Below, in pieces: positions 9,484-22,612 of a DNA stretch of 40,659 nt. The stretch comes from Oligoflexales bacterium (GTDB lineage: Bacteria > Bdellovibrionota_B > Oligoflexia > Oligoflexales > Bog-1112): positions 1 through 40,659 of the forward strand of contig JBGCEP010000008.1 in NCBI GenBank assembly GCA_045106415.1. The letters run 5' to 3'. The stretch's first letter is position 1; each line of letters opens with the position of its first letter. The notes below the pieces were generated by a model. That model had not been told where the DNA came from, searched no databases, and saw only the letters and a list, made by a program, of their open reading frames with translations. A program made the position numbers and the translations under genes.

Positions 9484-10635
9484 CTATTCAAAATATTTCA
9501 AGCAAAATCTTTCATCAATAACCTGAGATTTAAGAATGTTAAGAATCTTTTGCGAAGTTTTTGCATCACCATAAATATATTTGCTATCTTGCGTCAATTT
9601 TCTAAAACTAGGGTCAAAACAAGCTTTCCTCACTGCGGCATAAATATCTTCACTACAATAATCAACATCGATAAACGCTTGCCCATGGATACGTCCTCGC
9701 TGCCGATCTCCAACATTCACAACAGGAAGCTCTATAAAAGGAGCCTCCAAACAACCCGCTGAAGAATTCCCAACAAGACAAGAAGCCTGCTTTAATAAGT
9801 TCACAAACACTTCACGCGGAAGGTTTCTAGCAACTGAAAAAGTACCGTTTGATTCTTCAGATTCAATAGCTTTAATCACATCTTGTGCCCCTGGGTCAGA
9901 ATTTGGGTAAATAACAACACATGGATGAGAATCTCTGCGCACAGCCCGCAACACTTCTTCCGCATCTTCCCTCGCTGAGTTCTGCCTCCAAGAACTTGTA
10001 TGATGCAAAACCACCAATAAAGGCTGTTGTTGCGATCCTACATCCAGATTGCAGCTACGAAAAACCTCTTCTCTAGTCATATCTGGAGTGTCAACAAATT
10101 TTTCTAATGCAGGATTCCCTACGACATGAATACGATCATCACTTTCACCCATTCTTAAAAGCCGATTACGGCTATCTTCGTGAGTCACTAAATGAAGCTG
10201 TGACAACTTACTCACTGAGTGCCGCACCATATCATCAATATTACCTGATCGATCCCCCCCACAAATATGACCAACAGGAACTCCTAAATAAGTTCCCGTC
10301 ATAGCTGTCACCAAAGATTCTTCTCTATCACCAAGAGTCAGCAAAAGATCAGGTTTCCAAGATTCAACCACTTGCGTTAAACCCAAGATCTGTAAAGCAG
10401 ACCCTTTGAGCTGAGCTGATCGAGTATCTCCGTGTATTAAGCTTTCTATTTTCTCAATAATTTTAAATCCTTCAGCCTCAATCACCTCAACGCTACGACC
10501 AAACGTCGAACTCAAGTGTGCACCTGTTACAGCGAGACCCAAGTCAACCTCCGGATCTTCATTCAAAACCTTTAACGCAGGAAATAAAACGTCAAAATCA
10601 GAACGAATACCTGTCACATATAGAATCTTACGCAT
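9484..10635 (-). CDS. neuC: UDP-N-acetylglucosamine 2-epimerase (hydrolysing), NeuC family
   Basis: VTGIRSDF, TGAHLS..FG, LGDREE, HICGGD.SG.IDD..RH..SKL, YPNSD.G, VGNSSAG, GDRQRGR, YGD. Confidence 0.9.
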   Translation of the reverse strand: MRKILYVTGIRSDFDVLFPALKVLNEDPEVDLGLAVTGAHLSSTFGRSVEVIEAEGFKIIEKIESLIHGDTRSAQLKGSALQILGLTQVVESWKPDLLLTLGDREESLVTAMTGTYLGVPVGHICGGDRSGNIDDMVRHSVSKLSQLHLVTHEDSRNRLLRMGESDDRIHVVGNPALEKFVDTPDMTREEVFRSCNLDVGSQQQPLLVVLHHTSSWRQNSAREDAEEVLRAVRRDSHPCVVIYPNSDPGAQDVIKAIESEESNGTFSVARNLPREVFVNLLKQASCLVGNSSAGCLEAPFIELPVVNVGDRQRGRIHGQAFIDVDYCSEDIYAAVRKACFDPSFRKLTQDSKYIYGDAKTSQKILNILKSQVIDERFCLKYFE

Positions 10636-10677
10636 GAAGAGCCTCTAAAATAAAACCATTTGAAAAATAGACACTTA

Positions 10678-10706
10678 AGTATAATTTTCACATAGATAGC
10701 TGTCAA
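10678..10706 (-). promoter_or_regulatory. sigma70 promoter of neuC
   Basis: TTGACA-N17-TATACT on the minus strand. Confidence 0.7.
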
Positions 10707-10882
10707 TCAACAGCATGATCGCTTTTTTTATCAACCCCACAAAGAGCCTTCTACATAAAAAAATCATCTATCCTCAAAAAACGTCTCTCAAGTTGACAAC
10801 AAAATATTTATTTTCATAGACACAAGTCCACTCTTTCGTTTAAAACTTCACGTCTGGACTCTCGTAAGAAAAGGAAACAAAG

Positions 10883-11875
10883 ATGAGCCAACCATATGAA
10901 ATATTGAGTTTTTATAAGTTTGTCGACATTGAAGATCCTACAGCTCTTCAAGCTGACCTCAAAAAATTAACACAAACTCTCAATATGCTTGGAACAATTC
11001 TTCTTGCTAAGGAGGGTATTAACGGCATGGTTACAGGCTCACCGACGGATATAGAAGTATTTAAATCTTCTATGCACGAAAACCCTTTGTTTTCAGATCT
11101 TTTATTTAAAGCAAATCTTCATGACCAACCCGCTTTTAGCCGCATGCTTGTGAAAGTAAAAAACCATATTATCACTCTTAGAAAAGAAGTTGAGCCTACA
11201 AAAGAAACAGGAGAATACCTTTCCCCAAAAGATTTTCTCGACTGGCAAAACAAAAACAAAGACATGATCATCCTGGATACACGAAATGATTATGAAGTTG
11301 AGATGGGAACTTTTCAGAATGCTGTGAACCCAGATATTCAATCTTTCGATCAATTTCCTGAGTGGGTTGATCAAAACTTAGAAAACAACAAAAAAACACC
11401 CATCGTTACTTTTTGCACTGGTGGAATCCGCTGTGAAAAAGCCACAGCTTATATGAAGCAAAAAGGGTTTGAATCCGTCTACCAACTTGACGGTGGTATT
11501 ATTACTTATTTTGAAGAAACCAAAAACGACCCAGAAAACAATTATTGGGTTGGAGAGTGCACCGTCTTCGACAAAAGAAAAGCTATAACAAAAACCTTAG
11601 AGCCAAGCACTCAACTCATCTGTTATGTCTGCCTCACTACCATAAAAGAAGAAAATTTAGCGCAACAGCCGACCAAAGACGCTCTTTGCATCACATGCGC
11701 TAAAAGTATGAAAGAAAGCCAAGAAAAGAGAACCAAAAAAGGAATTGAAAAAAGCACTGAATTTCATCAAAAAAGAGCAAATTTTCTACATAAAGAAAGA
11801 ATAAAGTATTCAGTGAAATTTAAAGAACATCAAAACCATCATTCAACAGAGAGCAGCACTTCAAACTCGAACTGA
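10883..11875 (+). CDS. trhO: tRNA uridine(34) hydroxylase TrhO (YceA/UPF0176 rhodanese)
   Basis: FYKF, GTILLAKEGING, LDTRNDYE..GTF, FCTGGIRCEKA, YQLDGGI..Y, W.GEC.VFD.R. Confidence 0.9.
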   Translation: MSQPYEILSFYKFVDIEDPTALQADLKKLTQTLNMLGTILLAKEGINGMVTGSPTDIEVFKSSMHENPLFSDLLFKANLHDQPAFSRMLVKVKNHIITLRKEVEPTKETGEYLSPKDFLDWQNKNKDMIILDTRNDYEVEMGTFQNAVNPDIQSFDQFPEWVDQNLENNKKTPIVTFCTGGIRCEKATAYMKQKGFESVYQLDGGIITYFEETKNDPENNYWVGECTVFDKRKAITKTLEPSTQLICYVCLTTIKEENLAQQPTKDALCITCAKSMKESQEKRTKKGIEKSTEFHQKRANFLHKERIKYSVKFKEHQNHHSTESSTSNSN

Positions 11876-13389: not shown

Positions 13390-14406
13390 CTAATTTCTAA
13401 AATTATTAATTTCAGACAAAATCATCACAATAAAATCAAACCACTTTCTGTGAGTATAAAAATTAATATTTGCGCCATCTACTACAGCGTAGCCATGATC
13501 AACAATCAATTTATCTAAGTAATCAACTTCCCCTTGCTGGACGGAGATAATCTGGCCATCAGATGACTTCCTGTGAACCAAAACACCAAAAAAATCTTTA
13601 GGGATTAATGTATTAACATATTTAATTGTTGAATAGGATTGTGTTTTACGCATAAGAAGTGGAGGTAAAAAATCTAACGTTAACAACCTAAAGTTTTCAG
13701 AACCCTCTTTCAACACCGCATGTGATTTGAGATTTTTTTGAAGAAAAGTATTCTTTTCAAAATTAAGCTCTATTAGATTTCTGATATCAGTATAAGAAAA
13801 AACCGAACAAGAAAATAAATCTTTTTGTCGTTTCACTGCCGACATAATAACATCAATTTTAACTTCTCCTAAATAAGAGAAGACCTCATTTTGCATATCT
13901 TCAATTAAATATTCATCAAAGCCCAGTGAATCAAATATAAATATCTCTAACTCTTGATATTGGTGAATTAAAACAATTGGGCATAAGTGAGGATCCTCAT
14001 AAGTCTCGTTATCTCTATATAGAATCACATAGTCAACTTTTCTGTCACTCATCGAGGGTGTAGCATTACTTTTTATTAAATCTTTAAGTTCACTTAAAGA
14101 ACAAAAATGTATATTCCAATCTTTCCATGCTTCAGCTTGATCACGCTTTAAATACCGCTCAACAAGATCAAGACCTTTCGGACGTATGAAAATATAGTCT
14201 TCGTCTTTTAAAAAATAATCCTTGAGATGATGTGTGTCCAAATTCTCTAAAATTAATTTATGCATCTTTTCAAGATTTTCAGGAGATTTCACTAGAGAAA
14301 AATTTTTAGCTCTCTCTAAGACTTCATCAAACTGTAAAGGCGCACCTAATAAATTTAAATTTGCGAGCGTAAATATTATCAATACAATACGGAGAAAAAT
14401 TTTCAT
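13390..14406 (-). CDS. Secreted CE-clan (YopJ/AvrA-like or Ulp1-like) cysteine-dependent enzyme
   Basis: Signal peptide MKIFLRIVLIIFTLANLNLLGA; H(LCP)-19aa-D(SLG)...RQKDLFSC.VFS...LPPLLMRKTQS. Confidence 0.6.
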   Translation of the reverse strand: MKIFLRIVLIIFTLANLNLLGAPLQFDEVLERAKNFSLVKSPENLEKMHKLILENLDTHHLKDYFLKDEDYIFIRPKGLDLVERYLKRDQAEAWKDWNIHFCSLSELKDLIKSNATPSMSDRKVDYVILYRDNETYEDPHLCPIVLIHQYQELEIFIFDSLGFDEYLIEDMQNEVFSYLGEVKIDVIMSAVKRQKDLFSCSVFSYTDIRNLIELNFEKNTFLQKNLKSHAVLKEGSENFRLLTLDFLPPLLMRKTQSYSTIKYVNTLIPKDFFGVLVHRKSSDGQIISVQQGEVDYLDKLIVDHGYAVVDGANINFYTHRKWFDFIVMILSEINNFRN

Positions 14407-14711
14407 AAAAACCCTTAAAAAACCAAAACGTGATAACTTTATAATCAAATAATTAACAATGTAACCATACTTCTGGATTTTAAATTTTTGCTGAAACACC
14501 CATATTAATTTAGGGCCTATATAAGATGAGCCTAATCTATCTCAATTCAAGTCACTAAGAAAAGAAATATGTGCAATTTTCTAAATACCTTGCATAAACG
14601 GCAGGATACTACACAAAAACCTAAAGGAAACCTTCATATAATCATAAAAACTCAACTCAGATAAACCTTGGGATTCTCTAGGGAAACACAACAATCAAAA
14701 AACTATCTCCT

Positions 14712-14751
14712 AAAAAAAACAAGATTCTTGTGCTTTTGCACAAGAATCTTG
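14712..14751 (-). terminator. Intrinsic terminator of proS
   Basis: Perfect 14-bp stem CAAGATTCTTGTGC-TTTT-GCACAAGAATCTTG, followed on the minus strand by U8. Confidence 0.85.
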
Positions 14752-14780
14752 CAGTCACAATACTTATATTTTCATTCGAT

Positions 14781-16378: not shown

Positions 16379-17659
16379 TTATTTCAAACGATGAACTTTT
16401 AAAAGAAAAGAGAAGTGTTTATAAATTTCACTAACAATAGCAGAATTTGCATCAAGCACAGCAACCTTAGGGTGCTCACGGACAGATAAGGCTAAAGGAA
16501 CAGTATCCGAAACAACTAATTGATCAATATCAGTACTTTCAAGAGCAGCCTTTGCTGAACCTGTCAAATGAGTCACAACAGCAATCACAGATTTCGCACC
16601 CTTACTCTTCAATTCCTTCGCAGATAAAGCCAATGTTTTTCCAGAACATGTCTCATCATCTACGATAGCAACATTCAAGCCGTCAACATTTCCGCGAACC
16701 TCACTCAAATCTTCAATAGCTCCTCTAAGCCCTCTTTTCTTTTGTAAGCTTTCCGAAAAAACACCCAACCATGAAGCAATTTTCGATGCTTCTTTTTGAA
16801 AACCTGCATCAGGAGAAACGACAAGATCAACCTTTTTATCTCGTAAGAATTGAGCAATAAACCCAGCACTTTGCACAACAAGTACCGGAATATCATAAAA
16901 ACCAACCATTTGATCGCTATGTGGCCTCACAGTAGTCATCACATGAGCACCTGCTGCTGAAAAAAGATCTGCCACAAGCCGCCCTTGAGCCACAATCCCA
17001 GAACCTCTATAGAGTTTGTCAGACCTAGAGTAAGGTAAATATGGAGAAATAACATGCACATAAGCACCTCTTTGTGCATATTGATAGACTTTAGATAATG
17101 CTTGTAAAATATCTCGACTTCTCGTTCCCCTTAACTCAACCCATGCTATGTTTTTATCTGAAATAGATAGGGCATCACAACTTTCAGTCTCTATTTGAAA
17201 AGGAAATTGAAATGAGAAACCAGTAGATGTGACATGTTTCTGCTGCCGAGGCCAAGTTCGAAAAACCGATTGTTTGCGTTCTAGTCGCTTTTTCGTATTT
17301 TTTAAAAAAAGACTTTCAACACCAGCAACAGCCAACAAATCATACATCAAATTCTCAGACACTGAATCTAGATAAAGTCTCTTTTGAGAATGCTCAACAA
17401 CAATACTCCGTGCGAACATGTGACGTGCCGTGTACGCTTGTAAAAGAGCTTCAAAAAACCTGTCCTCATGAAAACCGTCTTCTAAAAAAATACTTACATC
17501 TTCTCCTGATACATCTTTTAACTCAACCTGCATATTACCATTTGAAAACATTGAAGTTTGGTTATGGTTGCTTTTATGAGCGTCAAGAAGAATGGGCTGC
17601 GCAAAACAAGAATAGGACAAAAGGAAAAGAAGAGAAAAAAAATCATACCGAAATATCAT
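16379..17659 (-). CDS. Ribose-phosphate pyrophosphokinase (PRPP synthetase)-like protein with signal peptide and duplicated N-terminal domain
   Basis: PYLPYSRSDK, ADLFSAAGA, H..Q..GFYDIPV, VVSPDAG, K.R, IVDDETCSGKTL, VTH; extra N-domain FSNGN.QVELKDVSGEDV; start placed at ATG 17659. Confidence 0.8.
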   Translation of the reverse strand: MIFRYDFFSLLFLLSYSCFAQPILLDAHKSNHNQTSMFSNGNMQVELKDVSGEDVSIFLEDGFHEDRFFEALLQAYTARHMFARSIVVEHSQKRLYLDSVSENLMYDLLAVAGVESLFLKNTKKRLERKQSVFRTWPRQQKHVTSTGFSFQFPFQIETESCDALSISDKNIAWVELRGTRSRDILQALSKVYQYAQRGAYVHVISPYLPYSRSDKLYRGSGIVAQGRLVADLFSAAGAHVMTTVRPHSDQMVGFYDIPVLVVQSAGFIAQFLRDKKVDLVVSPDAGFQKEASKIASWLGVFSESLQKKRGLRGAIEDLSEVRGNVDGLNVAIVDDETCSGKTLALSAKELKSKGAKSVIAVVTHLTGSAKAALESTDIDQLVVSDTVPLALSVREHPKVAVLDANSAIVSEIYKHFSFLLKVHRLK

Positions 17660-17797
17660 ATGGCTTCCCTTTTTTAGCAATGAGCTTGATCAGAACATGA
17701 CAAAAAAAAGAAGGATTTACCACACAAACCATATAAATATCTGTATATTTAAAAATAAGCAGAAGTATGTGTGGTTTTTTAAAATAATTGCGAATAC

Positions 17798-18241
17798 TCA
17801 TAAATGATAGCGAATCGCAAGTAGACCACTCACTCCAAACCATGTTGACGGGTAGATCCCTAAAACAGGTGAAAGACCAAGAGCAATATGAAGAGAAGCT
17901 TTGGGGATTCGATATATGAAGCCAGCAGGAGTACGAATCTCTGTAAGAAAATTTGAAGACGTTGTCACCTTGGCTCCATAGCCAGCAAAGCCATCTAGGG
18001 GAAAATCACCAATCATAACTTTTCTTGGAAAAACATACATTTTGTAACCCGCTCCTACCACGTGAATAGTTTTTTGATCAAACGCCCAACCAAAGTCCAC
18101 TTGATAGCCTTCAAGACCATCAAGATCCAACCAACTCACGCCAACAAAATCATAAAGTTGGACACCAATCATTTGGCTACCCACGGCTCGGCCTGAACTA
18201 AGAACACATAAAATCAAAGAAAGCATGATTGTTTTTTTCAC
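17798..18241 (-). CDS. Small secreted/outer-membrane beta-barrel-like protein
   Basis: Signal peptide, alternating Gly/aromatic beta-strands, C-terminal AIRYHL. Confidence 0.6.
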   Translation of the reverse strand: MKKTIMLSLILCVLSSGRAVGSQMIGVQLYDFVGVSWLDLDGLEGYQVDFGWAFDQKTIHVVGAGYKMYVFPRKVMIGDFPLDGFAGYGAKVTTSSNFLTEIRTPAGFIYRIPKASLHIALGLSPVLGIYPSTWFGVSGLLAIRYHL

Positions 18242-18364: not shown

Positions 18365-19162
18365 ATGAAAATTCTCAAGAAATTAGGCATTGCCTTACTT
18401 CCTCTCGGATTATGGCAATGTGGAAGCCTAGAAGACGCTGTTGAACTGCAGAACTATTTAGCTCAGCTGCAATTGGCAGACTGTTTCGAAACCTCTGATG
18501 AAGGTTATGTACCAGAGTCATCAACAGCAACTGATGATGAAGCTGAAACAGAAGAACTCACAGAGTGCCAAGCAGATTTGACAGAAGTTTACGATGTAGA
18601 TGGTGATGGAGAAATTTCTGAAGCTGAAGGCACAGAGCTTGAAGCTCACATCAAAGAGCGCCAAACGGCTCGAAATGCTGCTTGTACCGAAGAAGGCATT
18701 ACCGATGAAACCGCATGTTTAGCTCATCATAAAGCGCAAAGAAAAATCCTCAGAGAAATAGCGATCACTTCATGCCTTCTTGACTACGACGCCGATAGTG
18801 ATTCTTCACTTTCTAAAACGGAAATGAAAGCATGCCATGACGCTAAAAAAGCTGAAAGAAAAGAAATTAGAAAAGATCTTCGTTGCCAAAACGACGATAA
18901 CAACGAGTGTGGACCTATCAAACTTGAAAAAATGAAAACAATTGCAAAATCTAAAGAAAAAACACGAAAAACATTCGTAGATGACACAGCACCAGGCGGG
19001 GTGATTGGTGATAAAACAGCAGCTGCTAAAAAATTAAAAGATGCCTCAACAACCAAAGCAGCTGAAAGATCCCCTCGAAAAGCTGCTAATGAAACAAAAG
19101 CAAGTGCTGGAAACACAGCTCGTAAAAGCCGAGGCAAAGTGGCTAAAGCAGCAACGCCATAA
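18365..19162 (+). CDS. EF-hand-containing Cys-rich lipoprotein
   Basis: Lipobox LWQC; EF-hand loops DVDGDGEISEAE and DADSDSSLSKTE; K/A-rich basic tail. Confidence 0.75.
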   Translation: MKILKKLGIALLPLGLWQCGSLEDAVELQNYLAQLQLADCFETSDEGYVPESSTATDDEAETEELTECQADLTEVYDVDGDGEISEAEGTELEAHIKERQTARNAACTEEGITDETACLAHHKAQRKILREIAITSCLLDYDADSDSSLSKTEMKACHDAKKAERKEIRKDLRCQNDDNNECGPIKLEKMKTIAKSKEKTRKTFVDDTAPGGVIGDKTAAAKKLKDASTTKAAERSPRKAANETKASAGNTARKSRGKVAKAATP

Positions 19163-19215: not shown

Positions 19216-19919
19216 ACACCTTCAACGAGCATATTGCAACACTACGCTTCACTCCAATGAGTTGTCCCTCTTGAATTCTTGTCTCTAAAACAACCCCAAC
19301 ACCCCCTAAACAAACTGTGAAATCCTATCGGATAGATACTAAAAAGCTTATGTCATTTATCCGTTTGAGTCAGAATTTTACAGCATCCCGCAACATGAAG
19401 ATCAAAGCACTGATGAAATCGGCAACCATAAGAATTTTTGATTCAAATTATAAAATGGATAAAGACACTATTTCAAAGGTTTATCAAAACTTAGAGCTAG
19501 CCACATGAAAACAAATCTTGTTCAGCTATGCTGTGTATATACATTGTTTGCCGATAAACCATAAGATTGACGAAAACCTCTCACGATCAGTTTACTGATA
19601 CTTTAAGATCGTAATAGTAAAACTTTTTGAAAATTACAGCCACGGTAGCATATAATGACCCATGATGATCAACATACGAAAAAAATCTTCATTCTAGCCC
19701 CTCTTAGATCAACAATCGCCTATTATAATGCTCTGTGTCATAAAGCTACAGACTTAAGCTTGATACAAGATCTACTTCTGTTAGGATGTTTATGTCTCAG
19801 CTAGTCATCTTTTGGTCATGGCCATTGCCATAAAGCAAAATCTCTTGCTTTATGCAACATTCATGATTTCCATCAAGGTGCCTGGTATGTATAATCTCGT
19901 TTCATTCGGAGGTTCGTCA

Positions 19920-20558
19920 ATGATTCGAACTCTAGTTGCAACATTGAGTCTTTTCCTAGGAGGCTATTCCGTGTTTGGTAAAGCTGCAGACAGCACAAAA
20001 ACAAAAAAAATTGCAGATGCAAAAGTTACTCACACCGTTTACTTTGATATCAAAATCGGTGAAGAAAAAGAAACCAAGCGTATCGTTATGGGTCTTTACG
20101 GAGATGAAGCACCTAAAACAGTTGAAAACTTCCGCGCACTTTGCACAGGTGAAAAAGGTACTGGCAAACAAGGAAAACCTCTACACTACAAAGGAAGTCA
20201 CTTTCACCGTGTCATCCCTGGGTTCATGCTCCAAGGTGGTGATTTTACAAATGGTAATGGCACAGGTGGAGAGAGTATTTATGGGGGTTCTTTCGACGAT
20301 GAAAGCTTCACCCTCAATCACGAAACTCCAGGACTGCTTAGCATGGCAAATGCTGGCCCAAATACAAATGGTTCTCAATTTTTCATCACAACAGTTGAAA
20401 CACCATGGCTCAACGGTCGTCACGTTGTCTTTGGAAAAGTGATGGACAAAGACAGCCTTGAAACTGTGAAAAAAATCGAGAGCTTTGGTAGCCAGAGTGG
20501 CCAAACCTCAACAAGAATTGAAATCACCGACTCAGGTGAAATCAAAAACAACTCATAG
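19920..20558 (+). CDS. Cyclophilin-type peptidyl-prolyl isomerase with signal peptide
   Basis: [67 protein letters not shown] before ATG 19920. Confidence 0.95.
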
Positions 20559-21547: not shown

Positions 21548-22612
21548 ATGAAACCTTACATCCAAGCTTTTATTTGTCTGTTCCTATGGAGCTTTAAGAT
21601 TTACAGTGCTCCTGCGCTCAGAAAAATACTCGCCACTCAAGATATTTCCATTGAAAAAAAAGACCGAGCTATTTTTTTCATAAAAAAGCTCCAATCGACA
21701 CAACTCACAGCAGCATCGACAACAAGTAGACGTGTTGAAAAAAAAACAGTCATACCTGAAGCAGTGTTAAAGAGCGCTCTTCAAAATCTTTATGCCCATC
21801 CCGAGGCCAAATTTTCACGAAGAGACCAACTACAAGCAGGTGAGACAAATAAAACATTTACCTTTTATGGCGCTTCCGTTGCTTTCCGGCAAAAAAATCT
21901 AAAAACAAAGATAAAGCTACGAGCACGATTTTACTTGAAGATCGATAAAAATGGGAACACTCTACGCTCTCAACCAGGGCATGGTTTTTTAGAGCTTAAA
22001 ATTAAAAATCCTTTACCTGGTCAAAGAGGGGTCCATAAATATAGAATCAAGCTACGTGATGACCTCATCTTTCAAGTTTTCACAAACCCGGCCTATACTG
22101 ACGAATTTCAGTTAGCTCTTCAAAATATTAAGGAAAGCCTTTCCCCTTCCTCTAAAGAATACCAGACAGCACTTATTATGTTAGAGGCTACCGAATATTT
22201 TTCTAATATTGACTCACGTTTTTCTCAGCCCGTCCTAGGGGTTTCATACACAAGAGATTCCTACCAGCAAGATATCCTTTCACACAACGTTCAAATCACA
22301 CTCGATCGCAATGTACAAGCTTACCTTCCTTACCAAATCAATCACTTAAATACATTTGACGATTATCTCTTTGAAGAGGCGGCAAAAGATCTCACACACA
22401 CTTACCCTAGTGATATTGTGGTTCTTGAACTCAAAGAGCCCATGCAAATAAGCTTGAAAAAAACTTTTAAAAAAGACTCTCTTCTAGAAAGACTTCGACT
22501 CTTCAGACAACATGCCTTCTGCCGCGCTTACGTTTCTTCTGGCTTTGACATCGAAAGAAACAGAGGCAAAGCTGGGACCATCCGAAACCTGCTCTATGAA
22601 AAATATTTATAA
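21548..22612 (+). CDS. VTC/CYTH (triphosphate tunnel, polyphosphate-polymerase-domain) protein with signal peptide
   Basis: RRVEKK, KLRARFY, FLELKIK, KYRIKL, P...VSYTR.SY, QITLDRNV, VVLELKEP; hydrophobic N-terminus ending IYSA. Confidence 0.7.
   Translation: MKPYIQAFICLFLWSFKIYSAPALRKILATQDISIEKKDRAIFFIKKLQSTQLTAASTTSRRVEKKTVIPEAVLKSALQNLYAHPEAKFSRRDQLQAGETNKTFTFYGASVAFRQKNLKTKIKLRARFYLKIDKNGNTLRSQPGHGFLELKIKNPLPGQRGVHKYRIKLRDDLIFQVFTNPAYTDEFQLALQNIKESLSPSSKEYQTALIMLEATEYFSNIDSRFSQPVLGVSYTRDSYQQDILSHNVQITLDRNVQAYLPYQINHLNTFDDYLFEEAAKDLTHTYPSDIVVLELKEPMQISLKKTFKKDSLLERLRLFRQHAFCRAYVSSGFDIERNRGKAGTIRNLLYEKYL

Follow-up and report, generated by a model that had tools for sequence, protein, structure and literature searches.

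A leader-bearing PRPP synthase paralogue with two N-domains in an Oligoflexales bacterium: a putative single-chain pseudo-dimer

Phosphoribosyl pyrophosphate (PRPP) synthase, found universally and located in the cytoplasm, needs two subunits to build its active site. According to passages of two earlier papers, each active site is completed by the FLAG hairpin that the facing subunit contributes, and the dimer is the minimal functional unit (PMC5395218; PMC12238573); the second paper assigns the FLAG to subunit A and the RF, PP, CF and ribose-5-phosphate loops to subunit B. Here we describe a gene whose product appears to make this active site autonomous in one chain. It lies in a 40,659-nucleotide stretch of DNA (the window: contig JBGCEP010000008.1, positions 1 to 40,659, of the Oligoflexales assembly GCA_045106415.1), where it occupies 16379..17659 on the minus strand (426 codons plus stop) and encodes a 426-residue protein, P0001. 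As far as computation allows, our results support P0001 as a leader-bearing, single-chain pseudo-dimeric form of the known enzyme PRPP synthase, and the explanation that we favor, as fairly probable, is that it is exported and catalytically competent as such.

Among described systems, class I PRPP synthases (E. coli Prs, 7XMU/4S2U; B. subtilis, 1DKU; human PRPS1, 8DBx) superpose on residues 140-420 of the P0001 model with Z scores of 26-27.6, root-mean-square deviations (rmsd) of 2.1-2.6 and 263-279 aligned residues. Like these enzymes, P0001 keeps the RF-loop, His, SPD, K-x-R and DD motifs and scores above the cut-off of TIGR01251. Unlike them, it has a catalytic unit that lacks the FLAG hairpin, an extra N-domain that supplies the FLAG in the same chain and a signal-peptide-like leader, and it falls far below the cut-offs of the equivalog-level models; the long-form family to which it belongs has NGN rather than DGE in the FLAG and R(A/P)H for DLH, and in most members shows a gap at the allosteric R102. 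In the dimeric Prs represented by chain 4twb_A, which matches both the full P0001 model (Z 25.1) and the extra N-domain alone (Z 9.7), function requires at least a bent dimer, the hairpin of one N-domain completing the ATP site of the other, as is predicted here. However, that cytoplasmic enzyme pairs two identical chains to form two active sites, whereas P0001 would be a single chain with a single active site and a half that is catalytically empty. The PRPS-associated proteins (PAP39/PAP41; 2C4K, 2JI4), Prs paralogues without catalytic activity, retain the FLAG region and, according to passages of PMC12238573, are thought to pair with an active subunit. The extra N-domain would play a similar role, and 2c4k_A is its second-best structural match (Z 10.1), but PAPs are full-length, separate eukaryotic chains with insertions, whereas here there is an N-domain only, fused in cis. 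We found no description of a leader-bearing, single-chain Prs architecture in the literature, including the main text of a 2026 preprint on PRPS classes (10.64898/2026.06.01.728777), whose supplementary class lists could include the family.

Two Prs N-domains with complementary motifs in one chain

The longest open reading frame (ORF) of the gene runs over 16379..17680 on the minus strand, the strand of all features of P0001 given below. The likelier start is the ATG at 17659, which has a Shine-Dalgarno-like AGGGAAG at 17664-17670; the alternative TTG start at 17680 would add MLKKGSH to the N-terminus. Pfam searches of P0001 found Pribosyltran_N in two stretches (E 4.6e-8), together with Pribosyl_synth and, just below its cut-off, Pribosyltran. 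The NCBIfam model TIGR01251 (ribose-phosphate diphosphokinase) matched P0001, also in two stretches, at 150 bits against a cut-off of 113, and gave 141 bits for the gene in a six-frame search of the genome, while none of the equivalog-level Prs models was reached (score/cut-off in bits: NF002320, 120.9/297; NF002844, 113.6/438; NF003428, 107.1/536). The genome (2.95 Mb, 89 contigs, 93.8% complete) holds a canonical prs elsewhere (G000:C18), as an earlier note on this DNA had asked to see confirmed; it scores 368.9 bits with TIGR01251, has FADGE, PYFGYSRQER and ELH motifs and bears no hydrophobic leader. Given this canonical copy, the window gene is an extra, divergent Prs paralogue.

When 5.8 billion clustered proteins were searched with P0001, 52 others of 374-530 residues came up, 29-46% identical to it across 43-100% of its length; they were followed by ordinary Prs of ~311 residues, which cover only ~44% of the query. 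P0001 and 49 of the 52 relatives were aligned as the long-form family (alignment A1, 50 members), P0013, P0026 and P0031 (374-394 residues, apparently truncated) being left out. Members of A1 are only 27-35% identical to P0001.

A hidden Markov model (HMM) of the N-domain, built from 41 canonical Prs, matched twice in all 50 family members. The first match, in what we call copy 1, spans model positions ~10-90, with independent E values of 0.01 or lower in 45 of the 50 and a best value of 7.5e-11; within P0001 it covers residues 33-88 at E 6.6e-3. The match in copy 2 extends to model position 139, with E values from 1e-9 to 1e-24. Comparison by hhalign related the canonical N-domain to copy 1 (98.7% probability, E 1.8e-16) and to copy 2 (99.9%, E 2.8e-31), and the two copies to each other (89.5%, E 2e-6). 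The two Pribosyltran_N matches for which the earlier note had proposed to look were thus found by Pfam, by the canonical HMM and by profile-profile comparison. Based on the HMM, hhalign and fold matches, copy 1 takes up residues 22-139 (17243..17596) and is an extra Prs N-domain with a FLAG hairpin but without the RF-loop motif or the His. The catalytic unit follows, comprising copy 2 as its N-domain (residues 140-262, 16874..17242, from structure alignment and hhalign) and a C-terminal phosphoribosyltransferase (PRTase)-type domain (residues 263-426, 16382..16873, from Pfam and structure alignment).

To compare motif columns, both halves of all 50 proteins were aligned to the canonical N-domain model, with E. 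coli numbering. In copy 1, the FLAG Phe column (F35) holds F in 42 of 50 members, and the D37 and E39 columns each hold N in 44 of 50; in copy 2 the same columns are gaps in 44, 44 and 41 members, respectively. The reverse holds for the P90, Y91, Y94, R96, D98, H131 and Q134 columns, which are gaps in 37-50 of 50 copies 1 and hold the named residue in every copy 2 (50/50). Within the family alignment itself the FLAG positions are F in 45/50, N in 46/50 and N in 46/50, and every member (50/50) has the RF-loop residues P, Y, Y, R, D and K. The FLAG motif of P0001 is F38-S-N40-G-N42 (17534..17548), which aligns with F35-x-D37-x-E39 of E. coli Prs, while its RF-loop motif, P206-YLPYSRSD-K215 (17015..17044), corresponds in the alignment to 7xmu_A to E. 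coli P90 through R96, D98 and R99; both lie where the earlier note had placed them. R245-P-H247 (16919..16927) aligns with canonical DLH, H247 being the equivalent of H131 (H in 50/50, R in 47/50). The proposal that two N-domains hold complementary halves of the ATP site therefore extends from the single protein for which it was made to 50 aligned members, and, judged by these alignments, the complementary split is the defining trait of the long-form family.

Predicted fold and packing of the extra N-domain

The full-length AlphaFold2 (AF2) model of P0001, built on A1, had a mean predicted local distance difference test (pLDDT) score of 88.7 and a predicted template modeling (pTM) score of 0.88. 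Its sole weak stretch is ~141-170 (pLDDT 55-64), where the normal helix 1 and FLAG hairpin would be, and no hairpin was modeled there in copy 2; the catalytic unit thus starts (residues 140-170, 17150..17242) with strand 1 and then this low-confidence stretch. Complete Prs chains could be aligned to residues 140-420 of the model (8dbo_A: Z 27.6, rmsd 2.5 Å, 278 aligned; E. coli 7xmu_A: Z 27.0), with 38 Prs/PAP entries at Z 22-27.6 versus 15.5 or lower for other PRTases. Copy 1 was also folded alone (pLDDT 85.8) and compared with 48,161 PDB representatives without a prefilter. All of the top five matches were Prs or PAP39 N-domains, the best being 7pn0_A (Z 11.0, rmsd 3.0, 104 aligned, chain residues 5-142), whereas the best unrelated chain reached Z 6.9; Foldseek concurred (5t3o_A, E 1.4e-4). 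These results suggest that residues 22-139 fold like a Prs N-domain, a resemblance whose absence the earlier note had named as grounds for giving up its reading.

Copy 1 (residues 22-139) and the catalytic unit (residues 140-426) were then modeled as two separate chains, each with the A1 alignment and with ATP included. This split-chain model scored 0.86 (runs of 0.83, 0.86 and 0.86) compared to 0.20 for the best of three controls. The mark used for this score is reached by 116 of 157 solved complexes and by 2 of 215 mismatched pairs, counts that apply only approximately here, where the alignment was our own and a ligand was present. At least 90% of contacts were common to the runs, and partner pLDDT was at least 84. 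On the copy 1 side, the predicted interface comprises residues 38-48 (the FLAG hairpin), one face of helix 65-81 and residues 97-112; on the side of the catalytic unit it comprises helix 179-193, residues 220-239, Y210, R212, S213, 256-258, 338-339 (part of the ribose-5-phosphate loop) and 366-368. The FLAG hairpin is predicted to contact Y210, R212 and S213.

The symmetry of this interface was evaluated with the copy 1/copy 2 equivalences from hhalign; a published list of bent-dimer interface residues for direct comparison was sought, in PMC10227994 among others, and not found. A two-fold mate was found for 24 of 24 mappable top-confidence pairs (22 exact, 2 within one residue), and 16 of 20 mapped interface residues of copy 1 are homologous to interface residues of copy 2. 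The sole asymmetric top pair joins N42 to Y210, i.e., FLAG on RF loop. The predicted interface therefore has the look of a Prs N-domain homodimer with one-sided FLAG donation, and the split-chain result supports binding of copy 1 to the catalytic unit in the model. Together with the motif split, this predicted packing lends support to the suggestion that P0001 is a single-chain pseudo-dimer which rebuilds the ATP site in cis, and it is what the earlier note had hoped to see from AlphaFold, namely N-domains packed like a Prs dimer. Such an arrangement would be a natural solution in which the N-domain is duplicated, the ATP site is divided between the copies and both are coupled to an export leader.

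Linked genes, catalytic residues and leader

Since the long Prs of relatives is linked to enzymes that make ribose-5-phosphate and enzymes that use PRPP, its gene context provides the best indirect evidence for PRPP as the product. This context was examined in 19 loci (L005-L023), covering up to three ORFs per side in 17 of them, with L007 and L022 examined separately. Leader-bearing proteins of ~450-810 residues with a C-terminal LOG/SLOG domain occur within three genes of the long prs in 9 of the 19 loci (L007, L009, L010, L011, L012, L014, L018, L021 and L022; e.g., L021:7254-9011 and L010:4649-6586), frequently as a pair. The LOG motifs GGxGxM and PGGxGTxxE are intact in the ten that were aligned (A4), and the N-terminal ~380 residues of these proteins gave no family match. 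In L005, which carries the closest relative of P0001 (39% identity) and belongs to the same GTDB family as the window, the long Prs is itself fused at its C-terminus to an NTPase_I-T (ITPase/XTPase-like) domain and an adenine phosphoribosyltransferase (APRT; L005:1917-4223, 769 residues), the latter scoring 200.8 bits with NF002636 (APRT) against a cut-off of 125. A separate, leader-bearing gene for NTPase_I-T plus APRT lies directly upstream of the long prs in L015 (4612-5805) and L023 (4683-5810), with NF002636 scores of 192.9 and 186.5 bits, respectively, against the same cut-off. L016 has NTPase_I-T alone downstream, L019 has a PRTase fragment upstream, and P0127 is a fusion of a long Prs with a Ppx/GppA phosphatase.

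Residue equivalents were taken from the structure alignment to 7xmu_A and from the HMM alignment to canonical Prs. Passages on E. coli PRPS in PMC9232217 list F35 and D37 of the neighboring chain as contacts of the adenine nucleotide, with D37 hydrogen-bonding active-site ADP, R99 and H131 as phosphate contacts, and D170, D220, D221, T225 and T228 as ribose-5-phosphate ligands, and D171, K194, R196, N200 and T225 are named as critical in human PRPS1 in the part of PMC12238573 that deals with them. P0001 has R212 for R96, D214 for D98, H247 for H131, D284 for D170, K307 for K194, R309 for R196 and D334/D335 for D220/D221, all of which are invariant in the family (50/50), as well as S339 for T225 (S or T in 49/50) and T342 for T228 (49/50). 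Of these, K307-K-R309, matched through the HMM alignment, lies at 16733..16741 (K and R each 50/50 in the family), and the ribose-5-phosphate loop, D334-D-E-T-C-S-G-K-T342, lies at 16634..16660 (D, D and E each 50/50). The N200 residue is not kept, the position being G313 in P0001 and T in 30/50 or G in 14/50 family members. Retention of catalytic residues in 49-50 of 50 proteins at ~30% identity points to selection on catalysis, unlike in PRPS pseudoenzymes.

A different set of positions has changed throughout the family: D37>N (46/50) and E39>N (46/50) in the FLAG, R99>K (K215 in P0001; 50/50), D129>R (47/50), M222>E (50/50) and D224>A (38/50). The substitutions that the earlier note had read as hints of an altered substrate (DGE>NGN, DLH>RPH and DDMIDTG>DDETCSG) are all present, the family consensus being NGN, RAH and DDETASG. 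Clustered as they are at nucleotide-contacting positions, these changes make an altered donor preference plausible on sequence grounds, and the family is a clean natural experiment for finding out which of the FLAG residues determine nucleotide specificity. They are also the main argument for a pyrophosphokinase of the same build but with other chemistry, i.e., with a non-ATP donor (GTP or NTPs broadly), a different acceptor or operation in reverse. As noted in parts of the 2026 preprint, FLAG and RF-loop residues confer ATP specificity, and their remodeling accompanies broader substrate use in Class II (10.64898/2026.06.01.728777); the D37 that binds active-site ADP in E. coli (PMC9232217) is N here. 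However, D170, D220, D221, T228, K194, R196 and H131 are all kept, and the PRPP-using APRT fused or adjacent in L005, L015 and L023 argues for PRPP as the product. We therefore regard other chemistry as unlikely.

It is more doubtful still that P0001 is a non-catalytic exported pseudoenzyme, or a binding protein for ribose-5-phosphate or nucleotides, in which the fold was kept where ATP is absent. The periplasm is indeed an ATP-poor compartment, the Asn200 equivalent is lost, and the column equivalent to R102, of the allosteric site, is a gap in 35 of 50 members. Furthermore, PRPS pseudoenzymes are described in parts of PMC12238573 as common and as keeping their FLAG regions. However, by the same account pseudoenzymes of the PRPSAP2 type have lost D171, K194, R196 and T225, whose equivalents are kept here in 49-50 of 50 members, and the recurrent linkage to substrate-making and product-using enzymes also speaks against a loss of activity.

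P0001 begins with a signal-peptide-like leader (residues 1-20, 17600..17659), MIFRYDFFSLLFLLSYSCFA|QP, which has a putative cleavage site at CFA/Q and lies ahead of the first strand of copy 1; in the AF2 model a helix (residues 6-16) precedes that strand. Since the ATG at 17659 and the TTG at 17680 are the only starts upstream of the strand, the hydrophobic stretch is part of the protein. A looser signal-peptide heuristic that was used at first passed 47/50 family members and 2/41 canonical Prs, but also 31/52 unrelated neighbors, and was replaced as too unspecific. The stricter version demands K or R in the n-region, an uncharged 10-residue core with a mean hydropathy of at least 2.0 that starts by residue 25, and small residues at -3 and -1. 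P0001 passed, as did 44/50 members of the long-form family compared to 0/41 canonical Prs, 28/35 proteins of recurrent neighbor families and 24/52 other neighbors. The leader, first noticed in P0001 alone, is by this measure a trait of the family, and from the heuristic and the gene context we infer that P0001 is exported.

Cysteines follow a pattern in the family, although P0001 lacks both of its elements: a Cys lies 5-15 residues from the C-terminus in 35/50 members, sometimes as the sole Cys of the mature protein, and a CX4-6C pair lies in helix 1 of copy 1 in ~22/50.

That the N-terminus is an uncleaved membrane tether or functionless, making P0001 a second cytoplasmic or membrane-associated Prs isozyme, is unlikely: the leader was judged by heuristic and its n-region is weakly charged in P0001, but the hydrophobic stretch (~14 residues) is short for a membrane helix and is followed by small residues at -3/-1, the leader build separates the family from canonical Prs, the recurrent neighbor enzymes carry leaders too, the cysteines of relatives fit an oxidizing compartment, and, cleaved or not, a hydrophobic core preceded by K/R would place the enzyme outside the cytoplasm.

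Several points weigh against an exported, active pseudo-dimer all the same. The packing is a prediction, and the model may echo or have memorized solved Prs dimers. P0001 is the shortest and most divergent member of the family and lacks helix 1 of copy 1, and the catalytic-loop Asn (N200 in human PRPS1) is replaced, in the alignments, across the family. The stricter heuristic also passes nearly half of the non-recurrent neighbors, some of them membrane proteins, and the n-region of P0001 (MIFRYD) has no net positive charge, as read from the sequence, unless translation starts from the TTG at 17680. The periplasm normally offers no ATP. Finally, no NTPase_I-T and no long LOG-type protein was found in the window genome at its 93.8% completeness, which has a single short LOG gene (246-residue frame) and two other PRTase matches that, read by eye, are Hpt-like and Upp-like and without leaders; the pathway context of the relatives is thus not directly applicable to P0001.

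Nevertheless, each of the computational checks suggested in the earlier note turned out in favor of its reading, to which the family, its taxonomic restriction and the linked APRT and LOG genes are added here. For an exported PRPP synthase of this build, we infer activity, substrates and physiological role as follows. A Sec-type leader (residues 1-20) would take the protein out of the cytoplasm. Residues 140-420 would make up a two-domain Prs unit, complete but for the loss of its own FLAG hairpin, and residues 22-139 a second, catalytically empty Prs N-domain that packs on copy 2 via the same two helices on each side, like the subunits of the Prs bent dimer. The FLAG hairpin (F38, N40 and N42) would then be laid over the ATP-binding RF loop (Y210, R212 and K215), beside His247, giving one complete active site per chain without need of a partner subunit or hexamer. 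The likely reaction is ribose-5-phosphate + ATP (or another nucleoside triphosphate, NTP) -> PRPP + nucleoside monophosphate (NMP), either in the periplasm or in a nucleotide-holding compartment of prey or host. Among relatives, ribose-5-phosphate would probably come from the adjacent leader-bearing LOG-type nucleotide nucleosidases, and PRPP would probably pass to the fused or adjacent leader-bearing APRT. If confirmed, this would be the first PRPP synthase acting outside its producer's cytoplasm; as a monomer of compact size it could be of use in biotechnology, and it would point to unrecognized exported nucleotide enzymes in predatory or host-associated Bdellovibrionota.

A wider proposal, that LOG nucleosidases, single-chain Prs and APRT form an exported purine-nucleotide pathway of Bdellovibrionales/Oligoflexia-type bacteria that acts in prey, host or invaded periplasm, is speculative and we hold it to be rather unlikely. 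If it were true, LOG would convert NMP to base and ribose-5-phosphate, Prs would yield PRPP and AMP from ribose-5-phosphate and ATP, and APRT would convert adenine and PRPP to AMP and pyrophosphate (PPi), a three-reaction cycle that burns the victim's ATP to AMP and PPi while diverting its nucleotides. A single chain would in that case be the adaptation by which a normally hexameric enzyme can act as a dilute secreted effector.

Distribution of the family and neighboring genes

The long-form family is real but rare. An alignment of the extra N-terminal region (A2; 20 sequences, from the window and loci L005-L023) was used as a profile against 1.84 billion 50%-identity representatives and matched 97 proteins at E values of 1e-10 or lower, 14 of them at 1e-30 or lower. 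The profile cross-matches canonical Prs N-domains at 28-52 bits, including that of the window genome's own prs (40.2 bits, E 5.1e-10). The 19 loci came from contigs searched at one genome per species, and all are from metagenome-assembled genomes labeled Bdellovibrionales, Bdellovibrio, Pseudobdellovibrionaceae, Bdellovibrionia, Oligoflexia or Oligoflexales, or vaguely as delta- or proteobacterium. Within the GTDB phylum of the window, only 5 of 131 genomes had a strong long-form match (at least 108.9 bits, open frame of 436-769 residues), and four of the five are of the window's own family. A canonical prs was also present in 5/5 other long-form genomes tested (398-416 bits). A search of the ESM Atlas returned ordinary Prs clusters only, many of them from phage. 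In three proteins of 607-707 residues (P0165, P0167 and P0182), N-terminal regions of ~250-290 residues without a family match precede two strong Pribosyltran_N stretches (134-156 bits); these proteins may be further tandem-N-domain Prs outside the long-form family.

Beside the long prs of relatives recurs a further leader-bearing family to which no function is assigned (13 members in 7 loci; e.g., L011:4298-5833, L021:4214-5815 and L018:7413-8972). Its members are mostly ~360-560 residues long, with one truncated and one of 803 residues. The twelve that were aligned (A3) share an invariant R-P near the mature N-terminus and a G-R-D motif; they gave no consistent Pfam family and no NCBIfam match, and their best match among PDB sequences had an E value of 0.86. 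Pkinase-like and NIF-phosphatase-like proteins also recur nearby. Eukaryote-like domains in these surroundings include a RING finger (E 2e-11), sub-threshold matches to protein-kinase domains and NIF/CTD-type phosphatase domains, the ORFs concerned being L015:2728-3885(-), L006:7645-9456, L010:516-2894(-) and L017:2723-4183 and 10117-11601, several of which bear leaders. An NrtR-type regulator (NUDIX plus winged helix) adjoins the long prs in L005 (4242-4883) and L019 (4417-5115, minus strand). NrtR regulons often include a prs paralogue.

In the window, proS lies downstream of the gene for P0001. A promoter/terminator scan placed a strong terminator-like site behind proS (14719-14752) but none in the gap that separates the two genes, and co-transcription with proS is possible. 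Directly upstream, 17798-18241(-) encodes a leader-bearing protein of 147 residues that matches no family. Further leader-bearing products are an acidic protein of 265 residues with weak EF-hand-like matches (18365-19162, plus strand), a cyclophilin with an N-terminal extension (19812-20558, plus strand) and a VTC-domain protein (21548-22612, plus strand). Beyond proS, an ORF of 369 residues with a leader-like N-terminus (13390-14499, minus strand) resembles the YopJ Ser/Thr acetyltransferase family weakly, below the cut-off (PF03421; E 0.0018, 18.3 bits versus 24.4, profile positions 66-215 of 263), and its product is a possible candidate for a eukaryote-directed effector.

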